This document shows, piece by piece, positions 18,093-24,010 of a stretch of DNA of 64,000 nucleotides. Position numbers and translations under genes: made by a program. The stretch covers positions 519-64,518 of the forward strand of contig CAMUZZ010000002.1 of assembly GCA_947165355.1 (NCBI GenBank), read 5' to 3'. The stretch is from an uncultured Clostridium sp. (lineage in GTDB: Bacteria; Bacillota; Clostridia; TANB77; CAG-508). Under the pieces are notes generated by a model that ran no database searches, was not told where the DNA came from, and saw only the letters and a list, made by a program, of their open reading frames with translations. The number at the start of each line of letters is the position of its first letter. Positions within the stretch are counted from its first letter, which is position 1.

Positions 18093-18374
18093 ATGCTTCA
18101 AGAGGTTCCCAACTTCAAAGATGCTATCTTTGAAATAACGGAAAATGAGGGAAATCAGATAGCAACCATTTCTGTTTATGGTCACAAAAAGAGCATTACT
18201 GCTGCCGCGCTAATTAAGGTTATGCGGGATTTTGGCAGAAAGAAACGTTTCTTCAAGTACTATGACAGTTCTGATGTACCCGTAAAGCACCAGCAACTTC
18301 CGAGCAACTCTGACTGCTACTCTGCATTTGCATGCATGAGTATGGAAACTGGAGAGCTGCTCTACTACCTCTAA
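18093..18374 (+). CDS. GC-enriched small protein B (93 aa), unknown family
   Basis: SD GAGGGAG. Visibly higher GC than its neighbours. Convergent with proS. Confidence 0.5.
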   Translation: MLQEVPNFKDAIFEITENEGNQIATISVYGHKKSITAAALIKVMRDFGRKKRFFKYYDSSDVPVKHQQLPSNSDCYSAFACMSMETGELLYYL

Positions 18375-18449: not shown

Positions 18450-19748
18450 CTACATTTCTATGTCTTTTTTAGTAATGCTCATATCTTTGAATGCTGAATA
18501 TACATCCTCAATTTTCATTACCATTTTCTTACCATCTTTAGTTCTCTCAACTTCAACGTATCCATCTTCAGTATTGTTACCTAGTATTGCAATATATGGA
18601 ATACCTAATATTTTTGCATTTCTTATTTTTTCTCCGATAGAACCCTTTACATCATCTATTATTACCTCAACATCATTGTCTAAAAGCTTTGTATACATAT
18701 CTTCTGCAACATCTTTCTTTTTATCGTTGCTAATTATGTATAAATAATATGGTGTTACAGATACAGGTAGTGAATATCCTACAACATTACCATTTTCAGT
18801 AATTATGTTGTTTTCGTAAATTAATCCTAAAACTCTGCTAACTCCTATTCCATAGCATCCCATGTAGAAAGGTGCTCTGTTATTATCGTTATCAATATAT
18901 TTTATGTCCATAGAATCTGAATATTTTGTTCCTAATGCAAAAATATGTCCAAGCTCGCAAGCTTTTTCTTCTTTTAATTTTTTAACATCATCAATATTAT
19001 ACGTTTCTTTTAAATATTCTTCTGCATTTTCTTTTTCTAAAACTTCAACATTTAGTCCTTGATTTGACTCTTTATCGTATAAAATAGTATCTTCTCCAAT
19101 TCTAGAAAGAGCCATTATTTCCTCTGATCTTTTTCCACCCATTGCACCATTATCTGCTGCAACTGCAACTATATCCATACCAATTTCACTAAATGTTTTA
19201 AAATATGTTTCTCTAACTTTGTTATAAGAATCCATCATTCCTTGTTCGTCTCTGTCAAAAGTGTATAAATCGAACATTAAGAATTCTTTTCCTCTTAGCA
19301 AATAACCTCTGTTTCTTATTTCATTTCTAAATTTTGCTCCTATTTGATAGTATCCAACTGGCATTTGCTTATGAGAAGTTACTCTATTTTCTGCAAACAC
19401 TGTTATTGCTTCTTCAGCTGTTGGAGCTAAGCAATATGTTCCTTTATCTGTTTCAGAAGTCATCATAACACCTTCTTCAACATATTTTTCAAATCTTCCA
19501 GATCTTTCCCATATTTCTTTTTGTTGAATTAATGGCATTTGAACTTCTATAAAATCTGCTCTGTTAAAATTTTTCTTTATAATTTCTTCTACGTTGTCTT
19601 GTACTTTAAGTGGTATGTTATCGTAGGCATACACTCCGCTTCCATATTGTTTTACTTGACTTGTTTGAATTAATATATCCTGTGCTGGATACATTTCGTC
19701 TAAATTACTTAATTTTACGCTTTTCATTCCCATTTTTGAAATTCTCAT
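18450..19748 (-). CDS. proS: Proline--tRNA ligase, short bacterial-type form lacking the INS editing domain
   Basis: 432 aa. LAPTAEEAIT, YQIGAKFRNEIRNRGYLLRGKEFLMFDLYTF (motif 2) and GCYGIGVSRVLG (motif 3). Start at MRISKMG (19748) behind AAGGGGAG. A T-box with a CCU specifier candidate lies upstream. Confidence 0.8.
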   Translation of the reverse strand: MRISKMGMKSVKLSNLDEMYPAQDILIQTSQVKQYGSGVYAYDNIPLKVQDNVEEIIKKNFNRADFIEVQMPLIQQKEIWERSGRFEKYVEEGVMMTSETDKGTYCLAPTAEEAITVFAENRVTSHKQMPVGYYQIGAKFRNEIRNRGYLLRGKEFLMFDLYTFDRDEQGMMDSYNKVRETYFKTFSEIGMDIVAVAADNGAMGGKRSEEIMALSRIGEDTILYDKESNQGLNVEVLEKENAEEYLKETYNIDDVKKLKEEKACELGHIFALGTKYSDSMDIKYIDNDNNRAPFYMGCYGIGVSRVLGLIYENNIITENGNVVGYSLPVSVTPYYLYIISNDKKKDVAEDMYTKLLDNDVEVIIDDVKGSIGEKIRNAKILGIPYIAILGNNTEDGYVEVERTKDGKKMVMKIEDVYSAFKDMSITKKDIEM

Positions 19749-19993
19749 AATTAATCTCCCCTTTACTTTTATTTTGCGTGAAAAAACAAAAAGGACAGTA
19801 CCTAAGGCGTGCATAGCACGGTACCATCCTCTATTTAACTTTATAATTTTAACGGTTTTAAACCGGAAATAGTTTTCTATTTCACTTATAGGTAGGAATT
19901 AAACAATATTATAATTTGGTTTTCACTGTCCCAAACTCACTATATATAAGAGCTTATTTAATTATGTCCTAATCAACGTTTTTTATTTAACTT
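19749..19993 (-). promoter_or_regulatory. T-box riboswitch leader (Pro specifier candidate)
   Basis: T-box AGAGGATGGTACCGTGC overlaps a terminator ending in TTTTTGTTTTTT. The candidate specifier is CCT in TTAATTCCTACC. The promoter TTGACT-17-TGATATAAT is at 20000-20028. Confidence 0.75.
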
Positions 19994-20030: not shown

Positions 20031-20058
20031 AAAAACGGGGCGGACATACATCCACCCC
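20031..20058 (-). terminator. Terminator of cassette C
   Basis: Minus strand reads GGGGTGGA-TGTATG-TCCGCCCC followed by GTTTTT. Confidence 0.65.
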
Positions 20059-20066
20059 ATAGAAAC

Positions 20067-20330
20067 TCACTTGAACGCTTCCGCGTTCTCGGATTCTGCT
20101 GCCGACTGATTACAAACTTTTTCCGCAATCTTACGGAGAAGCTCCGTTTGCTTGCGCTGTTCATCCAGGAGTAACATAATGCAATTCTCTACGTTATGCA
20201 TCTCCTGCATAATGTCCTGGCTCTTATTTGCCGTATAGTCTGTTGCTTCCGAAGATTTTTTTACAATTCCCCGAATGTCCATCAGCGCCTCTAAAATCCG
20301 AGGCATTTCGTAATCGTAATTGCCGCCCAT
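20067..20330 (-). CDS. GC-enriched small helical protein C (87 aa), unknown family
   Basis: Start set at MGGNYDYEMPRILEAL (20330) behind AAAGGAG. The longer track ORF has no SD. Confidence 0.5.
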   Translation of the reverse strand: MGGNYDYEMPRILEALMDIRGIVKKSSEATDYTANKSQDIMQEMHNVENCIMLLLDEQRKQTELLRKIAEKVCNQSAAESENAEAFK

Positions 20331-20400
20331 GGTGAGCTCCTTTCTCCAGCAATGCTGGTTAAAAATTTTTACATGTGACATATCTGCCACATCCAATATA

Positions 20401-20429
20401 ATTATACCATTTTTATGTTAACCGGTCAA
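20401..20429 (-). promoter_or_regulatory. Sigma-A-type promoter of cassette C
   Basis: Minus strand: TTGACC, 17 nt, TGGTATAAT. Confidence 0.5.
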
Positions 20430-20481
20430 ATTTAAACCCTTATAACTATTGCTTTCAACATGCTTTTTCTTATTCTTCTTA

Positions 20482-21963
20482 TTATAATGAAAATATTTTT
20501 ATTCGCTTATCAATAATGCAACTTTGTATATTGTTCCTTCTATATGACTTAATTCTGTATTCATTCTTTCCATTAAATATAAATTTTACAACTTTTGTAT
20601 AATCAGTATCGCTTATTGGACCCTTTTCTTCTATTTCAATAGTTGCATTACACTGTTTTAAAGTCTCAAAAGTCGTAATAAAACCAATACCAGAACCTCC
20701 TGTATCTTTGTGAGTAGTTGCTGGCTCAATTCCTAATTTTGCTAAAGTTTCTATTTCAAACTCAATGCCAGTGTCTGATATACATAGCTCATAGTATTTT
20801 TCGTTTAAACCAATAAAAGTAAATATTTTTTTATTACTACTATCAATTGAATTAATTGCGATTATAGCATCTTTAATATGATCACCTATCATCGTTTCTA
20901 ACTGTTCTTTTGATATTAGCGCATTAATCATGTGATGTATGTTACCGCTTACTTTTAAGTTAAACTCTATGTTGTTTTGAACACACTCATCTTGCATGTA
21001 TTTGAACATATCATCAATTTCACTAATATCAGTTTTTGGAAGCTCAATTATCAATCTATTTTCTTTTAGCTTATTAGAATGTTCTTTTGTTAACTCTTGT
21101 ATTCTAGATAATATTTCGTTATCTTCAGCGAACTCTGTATCTGCTTTTTTTAATTTTTCATTTACCATTTTTTCAAGAGCTCTCTGACGATTATAAAACT
21201 CATGATTTATTTTACTAACACGGAATGATTCTTCAGTTAATCGTTTTATCTCTGAATCTTTCTCTTGAATTTTAAGCTCATAATCTTTTATAGTGTCGTT
21301 GGTTAGTTTTTGTTTATAATACATTACTATAGTTTTTTGAATTATAACTGTAGTTAATACTCCAAGTAGTATATAAAACCAAAATAACGATTTATATATC
21401 ATTTCATTAGCATAAGTAATAAATGTATACACTAACACTAAAACAATACTAATATTTATTACAGCAATATCAATGTATTCATTTTGTCTCTGTAAGAAGA
21501 TAAATCCATCCTTTAGCCTTCTGGTTTTAAAAATAAAAAACAAAAACATTGCTTCTACTACTTCAATTAAAATTACATTAATTACCAAGCTTATATTATT
21601 ATCTGCTTTAATCAATAATGCTCTTTGGAATACCACAAATTCAATTATTGCAGAAATAACCATTAGTATTAAGGAAACAGCATTGGAAATCATGATTCCA
21701 ACAGTTACGTTTCCCGTCTTTTTCTTGGTAATTGCTTTTATTGCAATTGTTTCAAATATACAAATCATTATCACACTTACAATAATATCAAACACTGTTC
21801 TAAGCAAAAGATACATAATTGTTGACAGAATAACTAGAATACCCATATAAATTTTTTGATATAGTTTAGTATTTTTATAGTTATTAATCTTAAAAAAAAT
21901 CAAAATTGCATAAAAATTTATAAATACAATTTTTACGATATAATTAAAATAATCTACGTTCAT
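20482..21963 (-). CDS. Polytopic sensor histidine kinase (about 6-7 TM, coiled coil, GHKL ATPase)
   Basis: Start at MNVDYFNY (21963) behind GGAGG. Candidate H-box SKINHEFYNRQ. C-terminal ISDTGIEF...GGSGIGF ATP-binding motifs. Confidence 0.8.
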   Translation of the reverse strand: MNVDYFNYIVKIVFINFYAILIFFKINNYKNTKLYQKIYMGILVILSTIMYLLLRTVFDIIVSVIMICIFETIAIKAITKKKTGNVTVGIMISNAVSLILMVISAIIEFVVFQRALLIKADNNISLVINVILIEVVEAMFLFFIFKTRRLKDGFIFLQRQNEYIDIAVINISIVLVLVYTFITYANEMIYKSLFWFYILLGVLTTVIIQKTIVMYYKQKLTNDTIKDYELKIQEKDSEIKRLTEESFRVSKINHEFYNRQRALEKMVNEKLKKADTEFAEDNEILSRIQELTKEHSNKLKENRLIIELPKTDISEIDDMFKYMQDECVQNNIEFNLKVSGNIHHMINALISKEQLETMIGDHIKDAIIAINSIDSSNKKIFTFIGLNEKYYELCISDTGIEFEIETLAKLGIEPATTHKDTGGSGIGFITTFETLKQCNATIEIEEKGPISDTDYTKVVKFIFNGKNEYRIKSYRRNNIQSCIIDKRIKIFSL

Positions 21964-21997
21964 GTAAACCTCCAATTTTATTGGGTTTATTATATCG

Positions 21998-22044
21998 AAA
22001 ATAAAAAAAATAATCAACATAACTGTTTAACCAATTATGTTGAT
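21998..22044 (-). terminator. Hairpin terminator between the 13-codon ORF and the kinase
   Basis: Minus strand reads ATCAACATAA-TTGGTTAAACAG-TTATGTTGAT followed by TATTTTTTTTATTTT. Confidence 0.6.
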
Positions 22045-22055
22045 TTTTCTTAAAA

Positions 22056-22097
22056 CTAGATACCCATTATATATCTTATCCACTCCCAGAAGCTCAT
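22056..22097 (-). CDS. Candidate 13-aa peptide MSFWEWIRYIMGI
   Basis: ATG lies 6 nt after GGGAGGTGA, the stop is TAG, and its own terminator follows. Very short, so speculative. Confidence 0.3.
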   Translation of the reverse strand: MSFWEWIRYIMGI

Positions 22098-22322
22098 ATC
22101 TCTCACCTCCCGTTTCCTTTTGTTATTTCAAAAATATCATTGATAACGGGCATTTGCGGTGATTTGATGGACTGCACTTTTAGTAGAAAAATGTTTATAA
22201 TATGACAAAATATGATAATCAACAACAAAAAAAGAGCAAACCTTATTTTATTTAAGATTTGCTCTTAGATAGATTTATTTACTGTAAAAAAAAGCTTATA
22301 CTAATCGTATAAGCTTTTTTTA

Positions 22323-23099
22323 TTAAATTGTCTTTTTAATTTTGTCTGCATAGTAATATATAAATTCTGTTGGAGTTGGAACTCCAGTTTCATAATTAAT
22401 TCTTGCTGTATATAAATTGGTTAAATCTTCTATTGAAGAAATTCTCCATGCATGTAGTATTGCATTTTGCATTGCTCTGCTAATTGTGCTGCTAGCTCTT
22501 TTGTATTTTGAAACTAAATACTGTACAACCGGAATTGTTTCACCGTTGTCTGCATTTTTAATAACGTAATATATTGCATCAGCCAGATACTTTCTTCCTT
22601 TTAAGTGCATAGCAACACCAATTAAATCAAGCTCTTCATTAATTCTTTTAGAAATTACATCTTCTTCAGAATCTTCAAAATCAAGTTTTGCTTGGTTGGC
22701 TGTAGTTATTTTTCCACCACATTCATTCAAAAGTAGTAATGTATTCAACACATTCTCATGAGAAAAGTTAGCTTGATTCTTATAAAATATAAAATCTATT
22801 TTGTTTTTGTGAAGATAATTATAAACTGATTCAGAATATATGTTAGTAGTTACGATAATTTGGGGCATTTTTTCAGGCTTTTGGTCTTTTAATCCTTGAA
22901 TAAAATCAAAACCGCTACCTTCTCCTTCAGTTAATTCTAAGTCCAGTATAACTGCATCTGGGCTAAAGTTCTTAACGTGTTTTAAGCCTTCTGTTGAAGA
23001 GTTTGTAACTGCTACAATTTCTATGTTGTCCTTCATTTTAGCAATATCAGTATACTTTTTACATTCATTTGCATCATCTTCTACTATTAATATTCTCAT
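22323..23099 (-). CDS. Spo0A-like response regulator (REC + Spo0A_C-type DNA-binding domain)
   Basis: The REC domain has DAVILDLELTEG. The C-terminal LIGVAMHLKGRKYLADAIYYV, STISRAMQNAILHAWR and PTPTEFIYYYADKIK parallel B. subtilis Spo0A IGVPAHIKGYLYLREAI, SRVERAIRHAIEVAW and PTNSEFIAMVADKL. Confidence 0.85.
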   Translation of the reverse strand: MRILIVEDDANECKKYTDIAKMKDNIEIVAVTNSSTEGLKHVKNFSPDAVILDLELTEGEGSGFDFIQGLKDQKPEKMPQIIVTTNIYSESVYNYLHKNKIDFIFYKNQANFSHENVLNTLLLLNECGGKITTANQAKLDFEDSEEDVISKRINEELDLIGVAMHLKGRKYLADAIYYVIKNADNGETIPVVQYLVSKYKRASSTISRAMQNAILHAWRISSIEDLTNLYTARINYETGVPTPTEFIYYYADKIKKTI

Positions 23100-23136
23100 A
23101 AATAATTTCTCCCTCTATTTATCAATTTCACCTTTT

Positions 23137-23153
23137 GTCATTTTTTGTCATTT
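23137..23153. promoter_or_regulatory. Tandem TGTCATT boxes (0A-box-like) in the RR/XRE divergent promoter region
   Basis: TTTTGTCATTTTTTGTCATTTT holds two copies 10 bp apart. A third TTTTGTCAT lies on the minus strand at 22202-22208, upstream of the 13-codon ORF. Confidence 0.35.
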
Positions 23154-23298
23154 TTTATTATCATTTCATATCATACAACATTTTCTTTAATTGTTTAAAC
23201 TACATATGATTAAAACTTTAATCACAGGTTTAAAAAAGTGAATTTTTACATGGTTAGTTTTATTCAAAATCAACATTTTCAGAAAAAGGATGATAAAC

Positions 23299-23613
23299 AT
23301 GAAGGAAGAAATTGGAAAAAGAATTAAAAATGCTAGAGAAAATATGCATATGACAAAAGAAAGCTTTGCTAAAGAAATTGGAATTACCGGACAATACCTA
23401 GGAATTCTGGAAAAAGGTCAAAGCTACTTATCAGTGGAAAAACTAAAGAAATTGTGCGACTTAACAGGCTTATCTGCAGATTATATTTTATTTGGAAAAA
23501 CTATAACTATTGCTCATGACACCCAAAAAGTACTTTCCGGTTTTTCAGACGAACAAATTGCCAATGCTTGCAATACTTTAAAAGATTTAGCTTTGCTTAT
23601 AAAAAATGCATAG
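23299..23613 (+). CDS. XRE-family HTH transcriptional regulator
   Basis: MTKESFAKEIGITGQYLGILEKGQSYLSVEKLKKLCDLTG is a Cro/C1-type HTH. Confidence 0.8.
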   Translation: MKEEIGKRIKNARENMHMTKESFAKEIGITGQYLGILEKGQSYLSVEKLKKLCDLTGLSADYILFGKTITIAHDTQKVLSGFSDEQIANACNTLKDLALLIKNA

Positions 23614-23732
23614 CCTTATAAAAAAACATTACCTACCTTGAATATATTGTTTTTATTTTGAAAATAATATATTGACACAAAAATAGTTTATTGTTAGAAT
23701 GCTCTCTATATTAATTAGGGAGTTTTTTAACA

Positions 23733-23930
23733 ATGGATAACACAAATGAAACAATAAACGACGTATTTAAATCTGAAGAATATTTAAACAATGCCATGAA
23801 AATTGATACAATTAGTAAAGTTTTAATTGAACACTCTGATGTTCCAGAAGAGCTTGTAAATTGGCTTATTGAAGCTGTTAAAGACAACACCTGGCTTGAA
23901 GCAAGAGCTAAATATAACATACACAATTAA
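23733..23930 (+). CDS. Small hypothetical protein (65 aa)
   Basis: Own promoter TTGACA-17-TGTTAGAAT, SD AGGGAG and a strong hairpin terminator (AAGTCACTTACCAAAA...TTTTGGTAAGTGACTT). Host-like composition. Confidence 0.5.
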   Translation: MDNTNETINDVFKSEEYLNNAMKIDTISKVLIEHSDVPEELVNWLIEAVKDNTWLEARAKYNIHN

Positions 23931-24010
23931 AAAAGTCACTTACCAAAAATAAACTTTTGGTAAGTGACTTAATTGTTGATGAAATTTTTTTTATTTCAAA
24001 TTTGTTTGTT

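Follow-up and report, generated by a model that had tools for sequence, protein, structure and literature searches.

A putative peptide-sensing two-component cassette with a Spo0A_C-type response regulator in uncultured gut Clostridia

Layout and distribution of the cassette

The DNA analysed here (the window) is a 64,000-nucleotide stretch of an uncultured Clostridium sp. genome (assembly GCA_947165355.1, contig CAMUZZ010000002.1). The assembly, G000, comprises 893 kb in 33 contigs and is 67% complete; the window's own locus is denoted WIN in the comparisons. We describe a minus-strand cassette, flanked by mfd/spoU-methylase and by a T-box-controlled proS, that contains a response regulator with a Spo0A-type output domain (Spo0A_C), a 13-codon open reading frame (ORF), hereafter the mini-ORF, a polytopic histidine kinase and a divergent XRE-family regulator. 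Judged from sequence comparison, these four parts are a conserved and hitherto undescribed cassette of uncultured gut Clostridia. All the features that an initial annotation had listed here were recovered at or near the same positions, and those of the cassette proper are as follows.

23290/23299-23613, plus strand: XRE-family helix-turn-helix (HTH) regulator of 107 amino acids (aa), HTH_3, divergent from the response regulator
23202-23229: imperfect palindrome ACATATGATTAAA/TTTAATCACAGGT, an inverted repeat with 13-nt arms that are 85% complementary
23136-23174, plus strand: four T[GA]TCAT boxes in the XRE/regulator divergent promoter region, pointing towards XRE
22323-23099, minus strand: response regulator of 258 aa, REC plus diverged Spo0A_C (Pfam)
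22287-22321 and 22232-22266, minus strand: two intrinsic terminators 3' of the regulator gene
22194-22217, minus strand: mini-ORF promoter, TATCAT-N4-TGTCAT followed by TATAAA (-10), with the two boxes at 22202-22217
22098-22193, minus strand: structured 5' leader of the mini-ORF, about 95 nt
22056-22097, minus strand: 13-codon mini-ORF encoding MSFWEWIRYIMGI, with the Shine-Dalgarno sequence (SD) GGGAGGTGA 8 nt upstream
22012-22045, minus strand: mini-ORF terminator, whose 3' arm holds the kinase -35 element (TTGATT)
21989-22017, minus strand: kinase promoter TTGATT-17-TATAAT, without phased repeats
20482-21963, minus strand: polytopic histidine kinase of 493 aa, its start backed by homologue alignment

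The contexts of three regulator homologues show an XRE gene, the regulator and a protein of ~490 aa in three different genomic neighbourhoods, and no public gene call lies between regulator and kinase in any of them. Species-representative genomes were scanned with a kinase profile, which yielded 79 loci, all in metagenome-assembled genomes of uncultured Clostridia from gut or rumen (Clostridium sp. CAG:245 and CAG:452 among them). A divergent XRE gene and the regulator were found by tblastn upstream of the kinase wherever the sequence allowed, and the XRE-regulator-kinase triad is present in about 60 of the 79 loci, with differing flanks. For the module tallies, these loci were pooled with the window and, after removal of duplicates, with those from the context look-ups, giving 64 modules with regulator and kinase. 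The divergent XRE gene is found in 58 of them, and 62 carry a 12-18-codon, Trp-rich ORF between regulator and kinase, which bears out the inclusion of both elements in the module by the initial annotation. The XRE protein itself matches HTH_3 (PF01381) with an E-value of 3.2e-11 and 43.5 bits, against a cutoff of 23.

The two modules without the ORF are upstream copies of tandemly duplicated cassettes, in which the regulator-kinase gap is only 31 nt. Such tandem cassettes were observed in L037 (580-3009), L038 (3555-6300) and L041, where the upstream copy consists of XRE, regulator and kinase without a mini-ORF; in L037 this copy has a frameshifted kinase, in L038 an intact one. An upstream copy of this kind may serve as an orphan receptor whose peptide is produced elsewhere.

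Among 401 genomes of the window's order, 109 carry the kinase, distributed over 16 of 49 genera and including 4 of the 9 genomes of the window's genus. With a threshold of E <= 1e-58 for the regulator paralog, 104 of these 109 genomes also encode it, and only 2 genomes have the paralog without the kinase, in agreement with the earlier proposal that the regulator is wired to a dedicated polytopic kinase. A Spo0A-level match, in turn, was obtained in 363 of the 401 genomes. The other orders of the class (~380 genomes) gave just 3 weak kinase matches. The cassette is thus an accessory family that is order-specific, patchy and variably located. The self-contained island described initially was confirmed as a module; it is no one-off, being a widespread family found in 27% of the order's genomes. 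A search for the empty site in cassette-less genomes of the same genus failed, because synteny around proS is not kept within the genus.

Two divergent arrangements were recorded. One of the three weak matches, in genome G760 from a different family of the class (L087, 3378-5768), pairs a 467-aa polytopic kinase with a regulator of the Spo0A_C type (helix SVERAMQNAIDRTW). The 200-nt spacer contains no recognisable mini-ORF, and the pair may resemble an ancestral state preceding the addition of the peptide gene. Genome G300 holds a split cassette, with XRE, mini-ORF (MSWWEELGRYLKRWF) and kinase at C1:431-433 kb (L090) and no regulator there. Its regulator paralog stands alone at C1:597 kb (L091), 165 kb off, and has a further diverged helix, TTITNGIKNAIYHAW.

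Regulator, kinase and promoter repeats

The regulator has the REC plus Spo0A-homologous architecture that had been assigned to it. Its receiver matches Pfam Response_reg (PF00072; E 1.4e-11, 45 bits), and its C-terminal domain matches Spo0A_C (PF08769) over the full length of the model (1-104/104) with an E-value of 1.7e-16 and 60.6 bits, against a cutoff of 25; this domain is alignable to PDB 1FC3/1LQ1. The catalytic residues of REC (E7, D8, D9, D53, T85 and K107) are retained in the cassette regulators, as are the fold-determining residues of Spo0A_C (G161, G168, Y171, R208, A209, W218, P241, T242 and E245). At REC residues 105-109, the cassette family reads YK[NK]Q, compared with K-P in most receivers. 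The Spo0A_C domain is regarded in the literature as unique to Spo0A (PMC6136694).

The strong divergence from genuine Spo0A noted earlier was substantiated in several ways. Against the Spo0A equivalog model TIGR02875 (NCBIfam), the regulator scores 92.9 bits, below the 200-bit cutoff. The recognition helix STISRAMQNAILHAW is conserved within the cassette family and differs at most positions from the helix of Spo0A, SRVERAIRHAIEVAW, which is kept unchanged in 13 true Spo0A proteins of the same order. The gene in the window is not the only one of its kind in the genome: a second, canonical spo0A with helix SRVERAIRHAIEVAW lies on another contig (G000:C7) and scores 159 bits on the Spo0A_C domain alone, and the cassette regulator is only 23% identical to it. 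In a maximum-likelihood tree of 61 cassette regulators, the 13 true Spo0A from this order and one distant relative, the regulators of the cassette fall into a single clade (support 96/93), as do the true Spo0A (100/100), and the two clades are parted by branch lengths of 3.64, 1.44 and 1.2 substitutions per site, or more than 6 in total. On this evidence, the cassette regulator is classified as a Spo0A_C paralog that is not orthologous to Spo0A.

The neighbouring gene encodes, on the basis of its modelled fold, a histidine kinase of an unclassified family. The family has no model in Pfam or NCBIfam; the protein itself is labelled "hypothetical protein" in public records, with no precomputed Pfam domain. 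Among 1.84 billion representatives, 1407 clusters at 50% identity belong to the family (E <= 1e-3). No significant match to the HPK10 or HATPase_c_5 models was obtained. A sequence-profile search of the PDB with the kinase profile returned only a marginal match to KinB (E 0.03), in which only the G1-G2 region aligned, so a fold search was needed. In the AlphaFold2 model (predicted local distance difference test score 75.7), seven transmembrane (TM) helices are followed by DHp and CA domains, that is, a long helix bearing H254 and then a second helix and an alpha/beta domain. Foldseek searches against the PDB gave top matches that were all histidine-kinase cores with probability 1.0, namely HK853, LvrB, CpxA, WalK, AgrC, DesK and KinB. 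The adjacent polytopic kinase, initially described with 6-7 TM helices, is therefore borne out as a seven-helix protein with a histidine-kinase fold.

An alignment of 21 homologues revealed invariant positions at H254, D361, H362, D365, D397xG399 and G422GxGxGF. The H-box reads SKINHEFYNRQ (H254), the G1 box DTGIEF and the G2 box GGSGIGF, and an N-box-like motif reads GDHIKDAI in the window and GDH[LI][RK]DAI across the family. The seven helices occupy residues 1 to ~205 and are connected in the model by loops of only 2-7 residues; TM1-5 are hypervariable.

The C-terminal domain of Spo0A binds tandem 0A boxes. The spacing of repeats in the cassette promoters was assessed with a test that is unbiased as to word, in which 8-mers repeated with at most one mismatch were counted at each spacing from 6 to 24 bp. 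In the XRE/regulator intergenic region (58 loci), 216 repeats were counted at 10 bp and 127 at 20 bp, with 6-43 at the other spacings. The promoter part of the region upstream of the mini-ORF (62 loci) gave 185 and 88, with 0-19 elsewhere, and the segment from mini-ORF to kinase gave 1 and 4, with 1-26 elsewhere and no 10-bp signal. The repeated word is T[GA]TCA[TC]-like (for example TTTTGTCAT) and is oriented alike with respect to XRE and to the mini-ORF; its sequence drifts jointly in both regions by lineage, with variants such as TGTAAT, CTACAT and TTGTCAA. The cassette's own repeats read TTTGTCAT, compared with TGTCGAA for the 0A box. On the XRE side of the window, the boxes are TGTCAT, TGTCAT, TATCAT and TATCAT, with start-to-start distances of 10, 13 and 10 bp. 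Of the five tandem box pairs in the whole 893-kb assembly, three lie in the cassette and two inside ORFs, and intergenic tandem TRTCAT boxes in G000 are confined to the cassette.

Direct repeats at one helical turn are more in keeping with a response regulator than with a dimeric HTH repressor, and on this ground we infer that the cassette regulator binds the phased repeats. A candidate operator for XRE is the palindrome at 23202-23229, which separates the repeat array from the start of XRE. Additionally, the count of T[AG]TCAT across loci showed strong strand-biased enrichment; the count partly coincides with -10-like elements (TATGATAAT), and for this reason the argument for the boxes does not rest on it. 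Plain k-mer enrichment in intergenic regions was uninformative, with AT-rich words dominating.

In G300, which consists of one contig, a regulon scan with TGTCRWW-N3-4-TGTCRW gave 15 matches against 3 controls and no clear target set; the matches mix genuine 0A-box pairs with coding-region ones. The mini-ORF promoter of this genome, TGTCGAATTATGTCAT, contains a canonical 0A box (TGTCGAA) beside a cassette-type box (TGTCAT). Elsewhere in G300, at about 2013-2040 of L096 (G300:C1:1277912-1277939), three 11-bp-phased ATGTCGT/ATGTCAT boxes were observed upstream of a DUF2829-like gene of 161 aa, in a prophage-looking region with a terminase-small-subunit-like ORF nearby.

The mini-ORF, its co-variation with the sensor, and flanking genes

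The mini-ORF is missing from every public gene call inspected. Its start is always ATG, 6-9 nt after an SD of the form GGAGGTGA or GGTGGTGA, and because in-frame stops or the SD itself occur within a few codons upstream of the ATG, the encoded peptide is leaderless. Synonymous codons are used for Ser (AGT/AGC and TCA/TCT), Phe (TTT/TTC), Glu (GAA/GAG) and Leu/Ile (several), and the non-Trp positions F3, E5, I/L7, Y9 and G12 are kept at the amino-acid level. Across modules, Trp accounts for 18% of peptide residues and Cys for 0.2%. The 13-codon ORF of the initial annotation is thereby upheld: recurrence, a strong SD, synonymous variation, a structured leader, and a promoter and terminator of its own all argue that it is a real gene under translation-level selection. 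The arrangement in which the mini-ORF terminator and kinase promoter overlap is conserved as well, with TATTGATT in 29 of 62 loci and TATATAAT in 40 of 62.

The leader between promoter and ORF, aligned from 48 loci, contains two helices, with 89% of cells paired compared with 34-45% in slid controls, and compensatory changes in 12 of 17 pairs overall. One is a hairpin (92% of cells paired, 9 of 10 pairs compensatory) followed by an invariant UAUUUUU tract. The other sequesters the SD, which pairs with an upstream CACUUCC/CACUACC segment; one of its pairs flips from U-A to A-U alongside the change from GGAGGUG to GGUGGUG. In the window, the leader has diverged from this form and its fold z-score is weak. 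An Rfam search of the window region and of L020 matched the proS T-box alone, and the mini-ORF leader was assigned to no family.

Closely related modules differ in a sharply bounded block that spans the peptide gene and the sensor half of the kinase. In three pairs, the regulator and the cytoplasmic half of the kinase are 0-8% different at the protein level, whereas the TM region is 40% (L017/L018), 68% (L027/L040) or 54% (L028/L034) different, and in each pair the peptides differ as well (MSWEEIWKIIERIMGA and MSWDEIWKILEHILGL in L017 and L018). Sliding-window DNA identity in the same pairs is 95-100% through XRE, regulator, leader and kinase cytoplasmic half, and 50-68% from the middle of the mini-ORF to kinase residue ~140-200. 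L028/L036 presents the converse, with a peptide and sensor block that is 97-100% identical and flanks at 88-93%. Among pairs with a kinase cytoplasmic distance below 0.16, peptide distance and TM distance are correlated (Spearman 0.84; 14 non-independent pairs). A partial Mantel test of peptide against TM distance, controlling for the cytoplasmic half and the regulator, gave r = 0.17 and p = 0.0015 over 59 modules.

As this pattern is the one that defines agr specificity groups and comQXP pherotypes, it suggests that the peptide contacts the kinase sensor, and it is the strongest evidence for such contact. The remark in the initial annotation that the module was possibly peptide-responsive is hence strongly backed. 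The XRE protein remains 98-100% identical across these pherotype switches and so is not the specificity partner of the peptide. An RRNPP-like role of XRE as peptide receptor was likewise ruled out, given that it has only 107 aa and is unchanged across the switches.

Several further features adjoin the cassette.

23733-23930, plus strand: S65, an acidic small protein of 65 aa (ORF call), optional companion
23672-23700: S65 promoter, TTGACA-17-TAGAAT
23933-23970: bidirectional terminator of S65
20067-20330, minus strand: GC-rich 87-aa gene (cassette C), with promoter 20401-20429 (TTGACC-17-TATAAT) and terminator 20035-20060
19802-19985, minus strand: T-box leader, 56.7 bits (E 2e-10), under the Rfam gathering score of 93
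18450-19748, minus strand: short ProRS of 432 aa, 3' of the T-box
18093-18374, plus strand: 93-aa ORF in a GC-richer patch between DUF2508 and proS, termed cassette B in the initial annotation

The 65-aa gene had been counted as an element of the module. Its homologues adjoin XRE in about 14 of the 64 modules (tblastn), which makes it an optional companion, and no Pfam or PHROG family matched it. The GC-rich gene has a local GC content of 0.37-0.39, against 0.25-0.30 in its flanks, and encodes a helical protein with no family match. The only homologue detected, at 62% identity, occupies the corresponding position in L005/L006, two assemblies syntenic with the window, so this gene is a neighbour and its earlier listing among the module's elements does not hold. 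The short type of ProRS is found in 3 of 8 same-genus genomes. The 93-aa ORF gave no Pfam or PHROG match.

Proposed mechanism, alternatives and known systems

Taken together, the region probably is a self-contained, autoregulated peptide-sensing two-component cassette. In the mechanism that we propose, the kinase would be made from its own, constitutive-looking promoter, and the peptide from its own small regulated transcription unit, without a leader or dedicated processing genes. As cognate ligand or binding partner, the peptide would reach the seven-helix sensor embedded in the membrane and alter kinase output. The kinase would then autophosphorylate on H254 and transfer phosphate to D53 of the regulator, a pairing for which co-occurrence (104 of 109 genomes) and adjacency argue. 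The phosphorylated regulator would bind the TTTGTCAT-like boxes, arrayed in tandem with 10-bp phasing, both before the peptide gene, where they would confer positive feedback (presumably by activation rather than repression), and in the divergent XRE/regulator promoter region; its action at the peptide and XRE promoters would close the feedback loop. XRE may add a local repressor or relay layer that gates or relays the signal. We prefer the reading in which the peptide acts between cells, in view of the pherotype pattern and of the receptor cassettes that lack a peptide gene.

The same peptide could instead be a private, membrane-resident subunit of the kinase that tunes feedback in the producer's own membrane, in the manner of MgrB/PhoQ, SafA/PhoQ or PmrR. 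The sensor loops of 2-7 residues confine any binding site to the bilayer, the peptide is short, amphipathic and Trp-rich like interfacial peptides, the cassette has no export or processing gene, and co-variation requires physical contact only, not secretion. A private subunit, however, would have no obvious reason to diversify so fast. Sharply bounded allele blocks are the social-discrimination (pherotype) signature of agr and comQXP, as is the occurrence of one and the same peptide and sensor block in backgrounds that have diverged further (L028/L036), and the tandem cassette L038, with a second regulator and kinase and no peptide gene, has the look of an extra receptor. We therefore regard a private subunit as rather unlikely. 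An effector role for the peptide appears very unlikely: a membrane-active (phenol-soluble-modulin-like) or bacteriocin-like effector, sensed by the kinase for auto-induction or immunity only, would agree with a leaderless, amphipathic, Trp-rich product of a separate, highly regulated mini-gene, and the lack of intergenic tandem boxes in G000 beyond the cassette promoters could make the peptide the main output. Its net charge is about 0, it has only 12-18 residues and the cassette holds no immunity or transporter gene; moreover, G000 is 67% complete, so a wider regulon may be unseen.

The position of the mini-ORF also invites a cis-acting role, in which translation of a functionless leader peptide would control the kinase by Trp-codon attenuation or ribosome arrest. 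The ORF is Trp-rich and directly upstream of the kinase, a terminator hairpin follows it and a structured leader is present, but the kinase has its own promoter in and after the terminator, conserved in most loci, and the downstream hairpin has no evident antiterminator alternative. Furthermore, F3, E5, I/L7, Y9 and G12 are conserved through synonymous codons, and the peptide co-varies with the protein sequence of the sensor. On the grounds of the independent kinase promoter, the conserved non-Trp residues and the sensor co-variation, a Trp attenuator was rejected, and we consider cis control in general extremely unlikely. As for the output, the regulator might be a back-up or modulator of Spo0A that binds 0A boxes and feeds the peptide signal into sporulation promoters. 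Its output domain is homologous to Spo0A_C, TTTGTCAT has TTTGTC in common with the clostridial and Bacillus 0A box TGTCGAA, the G300 peptide promoter places TGTCGAA next to TGTCAT, and the L008 repeats include the TTTGTCGAAA word. This is nonetheless improbable, given a helix conserved in the family yet unlike the SRVERAIRHAIEVAW kept by the order's true Spo0A, clades more than 6 substitutions per site apart, intergenic tandem TRTCAT boxes solely in the cassette in G000, and Spo0A without the cassette in about 73% of the order's genomes. The cross-talk with sporulation promoters suggested initially is not supported, the helix being STISRAMQNAILHAW instead of SRVERAIRHAIEVAW and the repeats not TGTCGAA; the common TGTC core leaves some cross-talk possible.

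Several observations weigh against the proposed peptide-sensing cassette or its details. WIN and L020 have near-identical peptides and sensors that are 70% different, and the L024/L030 peptides differ by one terminal residue with sensors 44% different. No exporter, protease or modifying enzyme is encoded in the cassette, which leaves secretion unexplained; equally unexplained are the terminator-like hairpin and the SD-sequestering helix between the peptide promoter and the ORF. Some genomes (G300, genus g40) have the regulator unlinked from peptide and kinase. Some boxes overlap sigma-A-like hexamers (TTGTCA, TATCAT), and the binder may be the regulator or XRE. In the kinase, an invariant Asp appears to replace the usual Mg-binding Asn of the N-box (alignment by eye), and the Pfam HATPase_c match is sub-threshold (19.6 versus 26.4 bits), so that catalytic competence is deduced from fold and motifs. 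The G1 and G2 boxes of this protein, initially labelled a GHKL kinase, are invariant and align to KinB.

A more far-reaching reading joins these elements into a new class of Gram-positive cell-cell signalling, used by an abundant and still uncultured order of gut and rumen Clostridia, in which a leaderless, unprocessed Trp-rich pheromone of 12-18 residues would be sensed within the membrane by a new family of seven-helix, Asp-N-box kinases, a Spo0A-derived domain would be re-targeted to TTTGTCAT, and pherotypes would arise through exchange of peptide-plus-sensor allele blocks. We hold this combination tentatively, at somewhat less than an even chance. If the peptide is a signal, bacteria with the cassette would communicate by peptide and fall into pherotypes, and a processing-free peptide would rank the cassette among the simplest peptide signalling systems known, testable with synthetic peptides. 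The hosts are small-genome Clostridia (1.1-2 Mb), common in human, ruminant, rabbit and chicken guts and with no cultured model, and all four parts are currently "hypothetical", generically named or uncalled. The cassette also represents recruitment of the Spo0A_C domain into an ordinary kinase-regulator pair, and domain-based sporulation surveys of gut metagenomes can consequently over-count or mis-assign Spo0A.

A full-text search of the literature returned no description of the cassette; the nearest case was a protein of Clostridium thermocellum termed a "second Spo0A" (Clo1313_0637 / Cthe_3087), which shares 49% identity with Spo0A of B. subtilis and has been discussed as a stress or sporulation regulator (PMC4890492). 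It is likewise an additional Spo0A-type regulator in a Clostridia genome, whereas the cassette regulator is 23% identical to its own Spo0A and is accompanied by a kinase and a peptide. Spo0A itself shares the REC plus Spo0A_C architecture, and both proteins appear to use tandem 10-bp-spaced sites with a common TGTC core. They differ in the altered recognition helix of the cassette regulator, in the input (orphan kinases or a phosphorelay for Spo0A, a dedicated cognate kinase here) and in distribution (~90% of the order's genomes for Spo0A, only ~27% for the cassette regulator). With MgrB, SafA and PmrR, the cassette has in common a tiny hydrophobic peptide near or regulated by a two-component system that acts, or here would act, on the membrane part of a kinase; those peptides, however, have 29-65 aa and a full TM helix, are not hypervariable and form no allele blocks with a sensor.

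The likeness to agr lies in a short ribosomal peptide gene beside a polytopic histidine kinase with 6-7 TM helices, a block of peptide gene and kinase sensor half that is hypervariable next to a conserved kinase core and regulator, promoters that are, or here would be, auto-regulated through direct repeats, and the presence of the AgrC cytoplasmic domain among the structural matches of the cassette kinase. In contrast to agr, no cassette ORF matches AgrB or LytTR, the regulator output is Spo0A_C, and the cassette consists of four separate transcription units and not an operon. Moreover, the peptide has no leader, C-terminal tail or conserved Cys, and without that Cys no thiolactone is possible. 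ComQXPA of Bacillus subtilis resembles the cassette as proposed here in that the polytopic kinase ComP senses a short Trp-containing peptide and that a block of pherotype polymorphism extends over the peptide gene and the kinase's N-terminal sensor. ComX, however, derives by cleavage from a precursor of ~55 aa and carries a prenyl group on Trp, whereas the cassette ORF itself has 12-18 codons and no ComQ isoprenyl transferase accompanies it; ComA is NarL-type, and the cassette regulator Spo0A_C-type. The ComCDE, BlpRH and Pln systems of streptococci and lactobacilli also combine an inducing peptide, a membrane kinase and a regulator with direct-repeat auto-induction, but their peptides (ComC, BlpC and PlnA) have double-glycine leaders and a dedicated ABC exporter-protease, and their regulators are LytTR-type; the cassette has no transporter, and no double-glycine leader precedes its mini-ORF. 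The logic of the cassette is that of agr, ComQXPA and ComCDE, with every component different.

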